Positions 2,940-7,813 of a stretch of 7,813 nt of DNA are shown here, one piece after another. Origin of the DNA: a virus. Taxonomy: Duplodnaviria; Heunggongvirae; Uroviricota; Caudoviricetes. The stretch's first letter is position 1, and each line of letters starts with the position of its first letter. The stretch lies in the IMG/VR virus record IMGVR_UViG_2529292715_000014, positions 1-7,813 of that record; one strand, written 5' to 3'. Below the pieces are notes generated by a model. That model did not search any database. It saw nothing but the letters and a program-made list of their open reading frames with translations, and had not been told where the DNA came from. The translations under genes and the position numbers were made by a program.

Positions 2940-3030
2940 TCGCCGTTATCTTAAAAAATCTCATCAGTCGGGTGTGGTTATCGGGACATAATCGATCGGT
3001 AATACAGATCGATTTAATTGATTCGATCGT
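2940..3030 (-). promoter_or_regulatory. mom promoter region (Pmom) with Dam-methylation GATC cluster
   Basis: Three GATC sites at 2994-2997, 3007-3010 and 3025-3028. A T6 run on the coding strand (2953-2958) lies just upstream of a candidate -10 TAAGAT (2948-2953). This fits the known Dam/OxyR- and C-dependent mom promoter architecture. Confidence 0.6.
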
Positions 3031-3211
3031 CGTTTTCTATATGCGTTCCTTTTTGAAGGCGCTTTAAAGCACGTTTTAATCCCGGTCGGTCTGTCCTTGT
3101 TCCGCTTAATTTATCTTCAAATATTTATTCACATCCTGCACAAACAAGAGCGTTTCGTTGCAGGTCTGTATTCTGGTCATTTGTTGATACCCTTACATAG
3201 CCAATCAGCAC
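3014..3211 (-). pseudogene. gin: Gin-family serine DNA invertase, pseudogene (premature stop at codon 29 plus large in-frame internal deletion)
   Basis: Minus-strand translation from GTG 3211-3209 gives MLIGYVRVSTNDQNTDLQRNALVCAGCE, then TAA at 3127-3125. Continuing in frame gives IFEDKLSGTRTDRPGLKRALKRLQKG, then jumps directly to THIENDDRIN and a stop at 3016-3014. The whole remnant is 198 nt, against roughly 190 codons for this family. Confidence 0.8.
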
Positions 3212-3254
3212 GCTGAATTCCCCGTTTAAAAGCGGAAATCATGCCATGCAGGCC

Positions 3255-3280
3255 AGAAACGGCCCCTCGGTTTACAGGAA
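3255..3280. other. gix-like recombination crossover site, only the inner half-site recognisable
   Basis: GGTTTACAGGAA at 3269-3280 is the reverse complement of the Hin/Gin-family half-site TTCCTGTAAACC, with a 2-bp core TC at 3267-3268. The outer 12 bp (3255-3266, AGAAACGGCCCC) shows no dyad symmetry with it. Confidence 0.55.
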
Positions 3281-4047
3281 ACGGTAAACAAGGCTGGTAA
3301 CGCCGTGCAAAAAAATGGCGATACGTTGTCCGGTGGACTTACTTTTGAAAACGACTCAATCCTTGCCTGGATTCGGAATACTGACTGGGCAAAGATTGGA
3401 TTTAAAAATGATGCCGACAGCGATACTGATTCATACATGTGGTTTGAAACAGGCGACAACGGCAATGAGTATTTCAAATGGAGACACCACCTCACTGGCG
3501 GCCGGGTTAAAGACCTGATGAATCTTAAATGGGATGCTCTGTATGTTCTTGTTAAAGCCCTTTTCAGCAGTGAAGTAAAAATATCGACGGTCAATGCACT
3601 GAGAATATTTAATTCATCTTTTGGTGCCATTTTTCGTCGTTCTGAAGAATGCCTGCATATCATCCCTACACGAGAGAATGAAGGGGAAAATGGTAATATA
3701 GGGCCACTACGCCCCTTTACGCTTAATCTCAGAACTGGCCGGATAAGCATGGGGCATGGTCTGGTTGTTACAGGAGATATATTTACAAACCGTTTTTTAA
3801 TTAACAGCAGTACAGGCATGTGGATTCATATGCGTGACCAGAACGTTATTATGGGCCGTAATGCGGTATCCAACGATGGTGCGCAGGCATTGCTTCGCCA
3901 GGACCATACCGACCGTAAATTCGTAATTGGTGGGCTGGGGAATAGGCAATTTGGCATCTACATGATTAATAACTCAAGGACAGCCAATGGCACCGATGGT
4001 CAGGCGTACATGGATAATAACGGGAACTGGCTTTGCGGTTCGCAAGT

Positions 4048-4055
4048 TATTCCCG
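4048..4055. repeat. IS1 target-site duplication, left copy (TATTCCCG)
   Basis: Identical 8-mer directly flanks both ends of the IS1 copy; a ninth base G is ambiguous with the IS1 terminus. Confidence 0.8.
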
Positions 4056-4110
4056 GGTAATGCTGCCAACTTACTGATTTAGTGTATGATGGTGATTTTA
4101 AGGTGCTTGC

Positions 4111-4386
4111 GTGGCTTCCATTTCCATCAGATGTCCTTCCTGCTCAGCTACTGAAGGCGTGGTGCGTAACGGCAAAAGCACTGCCGGACATCAGCGCTAT
4201 CTCTGCTCTCATTGCCGTAAAACATGGCAACTACAGTTCACTTACACCGCCTCTCAGCCCGGTACGCACCAGAAAATCATTGATATGGCCATGAATGGCG
4301 TCGGATGTCGCGCCAGTGCACGCATTATGGGCGTTGGCCTCAACACGGTTTTACGTCACTTAAAAAACTCAGGCCGCAGTCGGTAA
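4111..4386 (+). CDS. insA: IS1 InsA (transposition inhibitor / N-terminal part of InsAB' transposase)
   Basis: Translation [43 protein letters not shown]...LKNSGRSR with a GTG start; matches IS1 InsA with a few substitutions relative to the K-12 copy as I remember it. Confidence 0.9.
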
Positions 4387-5620: not shown

Positions 5621-5623
5621 CTC

Positions 5624-6157
5624 TCATTCTGGTTGTTCGGGAAACGTTACTGGCAGACTGGAGGTGTCTGTGGATTCGACCTTCTGCGCGTAGAGCATCC
5701 ACTCGGTTAATTTCTGCTTATTCCCGGCGGAAATGATGCCCAGTCGTAGCTGTGAGTCCCATAGCTGGGTTTTATCCCTGACAAGTTGCAACAGGCTTTG
5801 CTTTTCATTTTCCACTTGTTGCCTCTGCTCTTCCCCGGTATAAGTTCGCTTTATCACTATGCCATCTTTGAACATCCATTTACCTGAAATATCAGCCCGG
5901 CGATTTGCTGTAATATCAGGAACCTCAACGACGCTTGCGCCTTCCGGATTAATTGCTGAAACATCCTTTTCAATACAAATAATAACGCCGTTGTGGTCAT
6001 AGACCATTTTCAACGTATCAGGCTGAAAGTTCTTTTGTTCCTCATACCAGTTTTTCCCATCCTCTGTATAAAGCCATTTGATGTTAAATTGTTTCGTTAG
6101 CTGGTATTGCTCTTTTGTTTCAGGATTACCAGCAGAAATGTTTTTTAAGTGCATCAT
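5624..6157 (-). CDS. Tail-fibre assembly (chaperone) protein, second copy, Mu U/U'-type
   Basis: 177 aa on the minus strand, paralogous to 5068..5595, starting 2 nt after the stop of the minus-strand tail-fibre segment. Confidence 0.85.
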   Translation of the reverse strand: MMHLKNISAGNPETKEQYQLTKQFNIKWLYTEDGKNWYEEQKNFQPDTLKMVYDHNGVIICIEKDVSAINPEGASVVEVPDITANRRADISGKWMFKDGIVIKRTYTGEEQRQQVENEKQSLLQLVRDKTQLWDSQLRLGIISAGNKQKLTEWMLYAQKVESTDTSSLPVTFPEQPE

Positions 6158-6159
6158 CG

Positions 6160-6613
6160 TTAAATACTCCCCGCGTTATACCACGTCCCATTAATGCAAT
6201 ACTGAATTGGCCTTGCCTGAGTTGTATCAATTAGTTCATCTCTGTTTGAGTTAACGGAACCGGTAACAACATAACCTGACCTGTCAGACCAGCCGGGACC
6301 ATTCCATGTCCGAACAGATGACAGACCACCAAGGCGAATACCTGTAATAAACCTTGAGTTACATTCTGCCTGCGTATATGCGCCAACATCTCTCGCTGAT
6401 GGCTTGCGTGTTGTGGTGTAAAACTCTGACCAGCCAGCCTCAAATCCATAACCATCACGCGCTGAACGATAAAAAATACCGCCGTTCTTATAATTCACAC
6501 GGAACTGTACAGCAGGGCAGCTCCCCGTATTCTTATTGAAGTGGAGGATTAATGTTGATGCACCGCTGATATTTGCATCATAAACACCGCTATTCCAGTT
6601 CCAGCCAACAGCT
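6160..6613 (-). pseudogene. Tail-fibre variable segment (alternative copy), 3' remnant truncated at its 5' side by the IS3-family element
   Basis: Minus-strand translation ...PQAVGWNWNSGVYDAN...SGYVVTGSVNSNRDELIDTTQARPIQYCINGTWYNAGSI ends with the same RPIQ-Y-INGTWYN motif as the other variable segment. The apparent N-terminal MVVSAIAST is read from the IS terminal repeat; no gix site or 5' region is present. Confidence 0.75.
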
Positions 6614-6656
6614 TGAGGTGTACTGGCAATAGCGGACACTACCATTTGTTCTTTTT

Positions 6657-7475
6657 TTAAGCAGCCATCTGATGATATTTTTCCCTGAAGGCTGCCGGGG
6701 AGATATTCCCCAGACGAGAGTGACGACGCTGACGATTGTAGAAAATCTCAATGTATTCCCGTATTACTGAGATGGCTTCATCCCGGTTATTAAAACGATA
6801 GTGGCTCAGGCTCTCATTTTTCAGCGTTCCCCAGAAGCTTTCCATCGGAGCGTTGTCGTAACAGTTACCTTTACGCGACATTGATGTTTTCAGACCAAAC
6901 TGCTCCTGTATGACCCGGTAATCGTATGCGCAGTACTGTGAACCTCGATCAGAGTGGTGGATTAGCCCGGCAGGTGGGCGCTGGCTCCTGAGCGCCATAA
7001 ACAGGGCTTTACCTGTCAGCTCTTTTGTCATGCGCTCTCCCATGGCGTAGCCGACAATTTCGCACGTATAAACATCTTTGATGCCAGCGAGGTACAACCA
7101 TCCCTCCTGTGTGGCAACATACGTCAGGTCCGCCACCCAGACCTGATTTGGTGCTGTAGGAGCGAACGTCTGGTTCAGCAGATTTGGCGCAACTGGCAGA
7201 TTGTGGTTCGGGTTCGTAGTCGCTCTGAACTTGCGTTTCTGCTTACAGCGTAGCCTCAGCTCCTTACGAAGACGTGCCAGTCGGTCACGACCAACGATGA
7301 TGCCATTCTCTGCCAGCTCCGTCTGGAGCCGCCGGGTTCCATATGTTTCGCGAGTGCGGATATGTGCCACCTTAATCTCCAGTTTTAGCCGCTCATCACT
7401 TTGTTTTCTGTCTGAGGGTTCATGCTGTACCCAGTTGTAATAACCGCTCCTGGATACACCAAATACCTGACACAT
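6657..7475 (-). CDS. IS3-family transposase OrfB (DDE integrase-like catalytic domain), IS600-like
   Basis: Translation contains ...WVADLTYVATQEGWLYLAGIKDVYTCEIVGYAMG...HHSDRGSQYCAYDY...KGNCYDNAPMESFWGTLKNE, typical of IS3-family OrfB. Normally expressed as an OrfAB fusion. Confidence 0.9.
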   Translation of the reverse strand: MCQVFGVSRSGYYNWVQHEPSDRKQSDERLKLEIKVAHIRTRETYGTRRLQTELAENGIIVGRDRLARLRKELRLRCKQKRKFRATTNPNHNLPVAPNLLNQTFAPTAPNQVWVADLTYVATQEGWLYLAGIKDVYTCEIVGYAMGERMTKELTGKALFMALRSQRPPAGLIHHSDRGSQYCAYDYRVIQEQFGLKTSMSRKGNCYDNAPMESFWGTLKNESLSHYRFNNRDEAISVIREYIEIFYNRQRRHSRLGNISPAAFREKYHQMAA

Positions 7476-7510
7476 CGCTTCAATGGGAAATTGTTGTCGC
7501 CATTGTTCGA

Positions 7511-7813
7511 TTAACGCGTATTTTTCAGCGACTCCTGTGCAAAATACGCTGTTGCTTTTTTTAATATATCTCGCTCAAGGCGAGCTTCATTTAACGCCTT
7601 ACGCAGTTGCAGAATTTCAGATTCCAGTTCAGCCACCGTGCGGGAACCAGGAGTACCGAGCCCTTTTCTGGCGGCGGTAACCCATTGTCCTAAAGTGCCT
7701 TCAGGAAGGGATAATCGGGAAGCGCCTTCACTGATCGAAAGTTGATTTTCAAGAACCGTTCTGACAGCTTCGGCTTTGAACTCTTTAGAGTAACGTTGGG
7801 TTTTTCTGCTCAT
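7511..7813 (-). CDS. IS3-family transposase OrfA (helix-turn-helix / leucine-zipper part), IS600-like
   Basis: 100 aa, MSRKTQRYSKEFKAEAVRTVLENQLSISEGASRLSLPEGTLGQWV...LERDILKKATAYFAQESLKNTR; matches IS600 OrfA as I remember it. Confidence 0.9.
   Translation of the reverse strand: MSRKTQRYSKEFKAEAVRTVLENQLSISEGASRLSLPEGTLGQWVTAARKGLGTPGSRTVAELESEILQLRKALNEARLERDILKKATAYFAQESLKNTR
7545..7552 (-). other. IS3-family programmed -1 frameshift site (A AAA AAA G)
   Basis: T7 run on the plus strand at 7546-7552 gives A7 followed by G on the coding strand, in the orfA frame TTA AAA AAA GCA. The -1 frame after it reads through into the orfB translation. Confidence 0.7.

Follow-up and report, generated by a model that had tools for sequence, protein, structure and literature searches.

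A Mu-type prophage remnant with a decayed tail-fibre inversion switch in Shigella dpiA

We analysed a 7,813-nucleotide stretch of viral DNA (positions 1 to 7,813 of IMG/VR record IMGVR_UViG_2529292715_000014; hereafter the window) that carries, at 1971-6613, the right end of a Mu-type prophage inserted into the bacterial gene dpiA. In a working phage of this type, the recombinase Gin inverts a DNA segment, the G segment, between two gix sites and thereby joins the constant tail-fibre part Sc to either Sv-U or Sv'-U'. Judged from its sequence, the switch in the window should be unable to work at any level, as the recombinase, a complete gix site and Sc are all missing and both variable fibre parts are broken. 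We are highly confident that a complete insertion resembling the Shigella phage SfMu in dpiA later decayed to this remnant with its dead switch. The evidence comes from comparison with SfMu (KP010268, locus L001), which served as the intact reference, and with seven loci carrying the same insertion (L002-L008), including a source contig (L006; GCA_000268245.1, AKMX01000024.1) that matches all 7813 bases of the window at 100% identity.

Lesions of the inversion switch

The prophage part of the window matches SfMu at 92-96% identity, and the alignment is colinear with just three breaks, namely a deletion in gin, a copy of the insertion sequence (IS) IS1 and a cut at IS600. The three aligned blocks pair window 1971-3052 with L001 1-1083 (96.5%), 3048-4056 with 1463-2482 (92.4%) and 4824-6614 with 2474-4265 (95.1%). 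The SfMu annotation gives the gene order Mom, Com, Gin, fibre, two assembly genes and fibre, and the Pfam assignments (Mom, Zn_ribbon_Com, partial Resolvase, Gp34_trimer, two Caudo_TAP, gp37_C, IS1 InsA domains, and HTH_Tnp_1 with rve) fit the following map of the window, in which ORF denotes an open reading frame.

1-1658, plus strand: dpiB (citA) sensor kinase pseudogene, as ORFs 1-1527 and 1518-1658 (from the ORF listing and locus comparison)
1627-1970, plus strand: 5' part of dpiA (about 114 codons); the called ORF extends into Mu DNA to 2010 (127 aa)
1966-1970: target-site duplication CTGGG (5 bp), with its other copy at L006 16525-16529, after the Mu left end
1971-2085, minus strand: attR, the Mu-type right end, starting TGAAGCGGCGCACGAAAAACGCGAAAGCG and aligning with the right end of SfMu (reverse-complemented) from base 1 onwards
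2086-2811, minus strand: mom, intact, 241 codons (Pfam PF25680, E 7e-75), equal in length to SfMu_55
2732-2920, minus strand: com, intact, 62 codons (Pfam PF10122), equal in length to SfMu_54
3014-3211, minus strand: gin remnant, the first 56 codons continuing in frame into the final 9 (from the SfMu alignment and translation)
3265-3280: surviving gix half-site CCTCGGTTTACAGGAA, with the deletion junction at 3264/3265
3281-4055, plus strand: 5' portion of Sv', the silent tail-fibre variable part (ORF 3305-4060; Pfam Gp34_trimer)
4056-4823, plus strand: IS1, 768 bp, with insA at 4111-4386 and insB' at 4305-4808
4824-5066, plus strand: 3' portion of Sv', with a 1-bp deletion (C) at about 4979
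5068-5595, plus strand: U' tail-fibre assembly gene, intact ORF of 175 aa (Pfam Caudo_TAP; SfMu_51)
5624-6157, minus strand: U tail-fibre assembly gene, intact ORF of 177 aa (Pfam Caudo_TAP; SfMu_50)
6160-6613, minus strand: last 454 bp of S, the expressed fibre gene (Sv part; Pfam gp37_C)
6614-7813, minus strand: IS600 (IS3 family), cut by the window end, with orfB at 6657-7475 and orfA at 7511-7813

The invertase gene has lost 384 bp (128 codons, L001 1084-1467) in frame, with the junction at window 3048-3052 lying in a microhomology of a few bases. The stub reads codons 1-56 followed by THIENDDRIN and then TAA where SfMu has CAA, an early stop that sits four codons ahead of the natural one; a second nonsense change, G>A at 3127 in codon 29, occurs only in the window and the identical L006. 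With Gin residues of about 57-184 deleted and 65 codons left, no intact serine invertase gene remains beside the segment: the stub retains the catalytic-serine motif and lacks most of the catalytic domain and the entire DNA-binding domain, and its 65-aa product in L005 matches the 145-position Pfam Resolvase profile over positions 1-63 only. The gene keeps its first 165 bp, and the Fis-dependent enhancer, which we take to lie within the 5' part of the invertase gene, may survive there.

The crossover sites fared no better. The gin-proximal gix of SfMu is TTATCTAAAACCTCGGTTTACAGGAA, from which the window lacks ATTATCTAAAA, leaving only the half-site by an 11-bp deletion. The second SfMu site (L001 4756-4781) lies beyond the point where the alignment stops (L001 4265) and is thus gone from the window. 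A pattern search that recovers both sites in SfMu found no complete gix site in the 20-kb L006 locus and none in L007, so that the two complete 26-bp inverted sites that should flank the segment are lacking. A Gin-catalysed origin of the 11-bp deletion was considered and rejected, since its breakpoints lie off the central dinucleotide. A passage of the SfMu paper describes 34-bp inverted repeats that differ by 1 bp (PMC4406740), and a C/G difference adjoining the gix centre is also visible in the sequences compared here.

Both opposed sets, Sv-U and U'-Sv', are present in the SfMu order and orientation, each with a damaged fibre part. In Sv', IS1 is flanked by an 8-9 bp target duplication TATTCCCG(G), and owing to the 1-bp deletion the frame terminates at 5034 instead of about 5066. 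The frame that enters Sv' from the gix remnant is the one S takes through its own gix in SfMu, which indicates that Sv' was a true alternative end of the fibre. The S gene stops at L001 4265 and lacks the 1012 bp further upstream, among them Sc and the second gix; the 454 bp that are left abut IS600, which, followed by the Mu left end, has replaced Sc and everything upstream of it. Because Sc is lost, neither fibre has a promoter or start codon.

The IS600 copy is full length in L006 (1264 bp, 14988-16251), with 99.7-99.9% identity to annotated IS600 and with HTH_Tnp_1 and rve domains. No 3-bp target duplication was found beside it in either of its configurations (that of the window and that of L007 and L008), which fits a deletion or recombination rather than simple insertion. 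Shigella as a group is IS-rich: its reference chromosomes have between 229 and 348 IS insertions, mostly of IS1, IS2, IS4, IS600 and IS911, and both IS1 and IS600 belong to the five expanded elements (PMC7373316).

The original prediction, made from the sequence of the window, had proposed stepwise decay of a Mu G-segment-type switch through four lesions, and this outline is borne out by the base-level SfMu comparison and by six related loci with differing subsets of lesions. Its invertase pseudogene at 3014-3211 is present, the actual lesion being the in-frame 384-bp deletion with nonsense changes, and the IS1-disrupted, frameshifted silent fibre copy (IS1 at 4056-4823, 1-bp deletion at about 4979) and the IS-truncated expressed copy (454 bp of S against IS600) were likewise recovered, the IS600-like element proving to be IS600 itself. 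The crossover site is indeed damaged, by deletion of a half-site and not by point-mutation degeneracy, and the lesions stand while their count does not, as at least seven separate lesions lie in the switch region. Lesions of host dpiB and dpiA had also been named and both exist, that in dpiA being the prophage insertion itself.

Insertion into dpiA and decay across Shigella loci

What interrupts dpiA, at 1970, is the Mu end itself. The attR junction reads CCTATGAACGGCTGGG and then TGAAGCGGCG, and the Mu-type termini (TGAAGCGGCG at attR and GAATCAATACA at attL) are both flanked by CTGGG. With CTGGG at both Mu ends, the insertion has the 5-bp duplication expected of a Mu-type transposition and represents a single such event in dpiA. 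Past the window end, L006 adds only the 64 bp that complete IS600, a 273-bp piece of the Mu left end and the remainder of dpiA; the left-end remnant ends in GTGAATCAATACA, the next bases, CTGGGGCAAACGC, being the dpiA continuation, and dcuC, pagP and cspE follow downstream as in E. coli. The original prediction had asked whether an intact prophage with functional gin and a second gix site lies beyond the window, and L006 has neither the prophage nor the site, as its prophage ends after the 273-bp left end. Transposase A/B, repressor, late and structural genes are all absent from the L006 locus, about 33 kb of prophage interior is missing, and the prophage left in this lineage amounts to about 3.9 kb of right end and the 273 bp of left end. 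The left-end remnant has the terminal TGTATTGATTCAC in common with SfMu at an overall identity of just about 82%.

The Shigella-like host that had been suggested agrees with the available records. The exact Mom, U', U and DpiA-fusion proteins occur on 877, 295, 353 and 699 contigs, respectively, and are named Shigella flexneri by their sources, and it is solely from these names that L006 was assigned to S. flexneri; S. flexneri FDAARGOS_713 and S. boydii 600080 each carry a sister locus. No match in the 5,426 complete E. coli genomes reaches 80% coverage of the window. Exact look-up of the 127-aa dpiA-Mu fusion ORF matched 780 blocks of the assembly collection, and that of the 161-aa ORF fusing the S fragment to IS600 returned nothing on record. 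A scan of species-representative genomes gave no match to the attR junction, probably since Shigella is not separately represented there.

The comparison with related strains carrying the same prophage, also proposed at the outset, showed loci that differ in their subsets of lesions:

L002 and L003: structure as in the window; L002 is CP054892, S. flexneri FDAARGOS_713, serotype 3a (PMC9455713)
L004 and L005: a different IS1 in opposite orientation at window 3610, then unrelated chromosome; L005 is CP049606, S. boydii 600080 (PMC7545283)
L006: identical to the window
L007 and L008 (NCTC assemblies): Sv' without IS1 or frameshift; S kept to L001 4529 (264 bp more); IS600 is followed by a MuA cut short at SfMu 2902, then ner and c, another, distinct IS1 (with duplication GCCTGGTTG) and finally the left end

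The dpiA insertion, the gin deletion and the gix deletion are common to all seven loci, S. boydii included, and the orientation of the segment is identical in the five loci that keep it. The IS1 and IS600 events and the Sv' frameshift are lineage-specific. The left-end remnant of L006 is unbroken at the point where L007 carries its IS1, which suggests that these lineages split before that insertion. Divergence among the three locus groups, 0.22-0.30% for the host flank and 0.12-0.30% for the Mu sequence, is consistent with vertical descent of the insertion. For S. flexneri 3a and S. boydii 600080, the common insertion would either predate the split of their lineages or have moved by recombination.

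Based on which lesions are shared, the following order of events can be proposed. A complete, SfMu-like transposable phage would have entered dpiA in an ancestor of several Shigella lineages. The 384-bp gin deletion, the early gin stop and the 11-bp gix deletion would have come next, followed by lineage-specific IS events, in which an IS600-associated deletion likely took the phage interior and IS1 entered Sv'. Other changes would also have arisen within lineages, with Sv' losing 1 bp, the gin stub acquiring its nonsense change and dpiB its frameshift, the presumed end state being a small inert remnant.

Several further observations concern individual loci. In S. flexneri FDAARGOS_713, an A7/A8 homopolymer difference at the start of the Sv' ORF (L002 11683, window 3309) is either an extra small lesion of that strain or a sequencing difference. 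The ner/repressor region of L007 (17204-18381) has no blastn match to SfMu and adjoins a transposase gene 98% identical to it, and the immunity region of the ancestral phage therefore appears to have differed from that of SfMu. In L004 and L005 (11985-13330), the IS1 at window 3610 joins the remnant to an integrase gene, beyond which lie a Hydrolase_3 gene, an ABC-transporter gene cluster and an epimerase gene; these neighbours, read from their Pfam domains as ybhA, modCBA and galE, imply that, compared with E. coli K-12, a large stretch has been deleted or inverted.

The host genes beside the insertion are decayed as well. In the group of loci that includes the window, loss of a single G at about 1473 puts dpiB out of frame, and L005, with one extra G at that position, has an intact 552-aa dpiB. 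The dpiB of L007 and L008 carries two nonsense changes (C115T and C1081T), and that of L004 is a split ORF. These differences indicate that dpiB has been inactivated independently in different lineages. Upstream of dpiB, in the citrate-lyase operon, citG is split and citD shortened in L006 (2771-3564 and 6626-6871), and IS1 adjoins citF in L008 (3401-5678), lesions that fit loss of the pathway after its regulator was destroyed. Our literature search found no paper on Shigella dpiA as a pseudogene.

Timing of the deletions and possible retention of com-mom

Three points weigh against a complete insertion that decayed in place. The gin and gix deletions occur in every related locus found, so their timing relative to integration is not fixed. 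The genes mom, com, U and U' are intact, and while inertness is evident for the switch, we only infer it for mom. The IS600-associated deletion, for its part, could be an adjacent deletion or the product of recombination between two IS600 copies. The first of these points leaves room for a phage that already carried both deletions when it infected, locked in one G orientation, with just the IS events and frameshifts reflecting decay in the host. Mu gin mutants are viable, as is established in Mu genetics, and nothing in the seven loci, from S. boydii to S. flexneri, places the deletions after integration. A passage of the SfMu paper even suspects that inversion is reduced in SfMu by the 1-bp gix difference (PMC4406740). 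However, every one of the best matches listed from the 5,426 complete E. coli genomes and from the 50,697 phage records covers an intact gin, aligned in two pieces across about 744 bp, and in none of them does the gin deletion junction appear as one aligned piece. Moreover, two separate deletions and an early stop within about 250 bp resemble accumulation in a region not under selection, and we consider it unlikely that the phage arrived with its switch already broken.

The intact mom and com genes raise a different possibility, that selection has preserved com-mom to serve the host as a DNA-modification module, with the switch region as adjacent debris. Both genes are intact in all seven loci, the identical 231-aa Mom recurs on 877 contigs, and all four single-nucleotide polymorphisms (SNPs) in mom are synonymous compared with seven non-synonymous or nonsense changes among nine in dpiB, U', U and the S fragment, although so small a number of SNPs, compared post hoc (one-sided p about 0.02), gives no more than a weak hint of constraint. 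The ORFs of U and U' are likewise intact without a plausible function, and at an overall divergence of just 0.2-0.3% or so, intact ORFs are expected by chance. In addition, the mom promoter of Mu needs the late activator C, which is absent from the remnant. Retention as a host module is, in our judgement, very improbable, and the two more novel readings, that purifying selection has kept com-mom as a domesticated DNA-modification gene and that the insertion serves as a phylogenetic marker, are, taken together, doubtful, if slightly less so. As for continued inversion of the segment by another invertase of the Din family (Pin- or Cin-like) acting in trans, Din-family invertases do cross-complement, Shigella has pin-type genes, and a note in the P1 record cites a Shigella pinB locus. 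Inversion needs two complete inverted sites, and the single half-site here has no match within 20 kb, nor does the segment differ in orientation among the five loci that keep it; the DNA itself already contradicts inversion in trans, which we regard as practically inconceivable. Decay of a complete SfMu-like prophage within dpiA accounts best for the shared and lineage-specific lesions together.

Significance and relation to known phages

Decay of a prophage switch is of a well-understood kind in an IS-rich pathogen, already known and ordinary for Shigella, and our results add nothing new about inversion switches. Their interest lies in a single prophage insertion that can be traced through several states of decay in sister Shigella genomes, illustrating how IS1 and IS600 dismantle prophages and how the two-component system dpiAB was lost. 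The insertion, its 5-bp duplication and the two shared deletions could mark relationships among Shigella lineages; if this holds true, the shared dpiA::Mu may point to common descent of, or exchange between, Shigella clusters that are generally held to be independent in origin. Since mom is intact, its activity could be checked.

Among known phages, SfMu is the closest relative, with the same gene order and orientation and 92-96% DNA identity across attR, mom, com, the gin ends, Sv', U', U and Sv. Compared with SfMu, the window lacks 384 bp of gin, 11 bp of gix, Sc, the second gix and about 33 kb of phage genes, and it has gained IS1 and IS600. The ner and c region that survives in the less decayed sister loci is without a blastn match to SfMu. 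Common hybridising bands in Southern blots indicated that most S. flexneri strains tested appear to have an SfMu-like prophage remnant (PMC4406740), and the locus described here is very probably the remnant behind those bands. The passages of that paper on the remnant give neither sequence-level anatomy nor an insertion site, both of which are provided here.

The G segment of bacteriophage Mu has the same architecture, its S, U, U' and S' genes showing about 89% DNA identity to those of the window, whose half-site matches a Mu-type gix. The window also has in common with Mu the typical 5-bp target duplication, although it is a non-functional remnant and lies nearer to SfMu than to Mu. The invertible fibre cassettes of Mu, P1 and P7 are textbook relatives, and the C segment of P1 and P7, an invertible cassette with Cin, contains homologous fibre and assembly genes (about 89% DNA identity). 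Unlike in P1 and P7, the neighbours of the segment in the window (mom, com and the Mu ends) are Mu-type and not P1-type.

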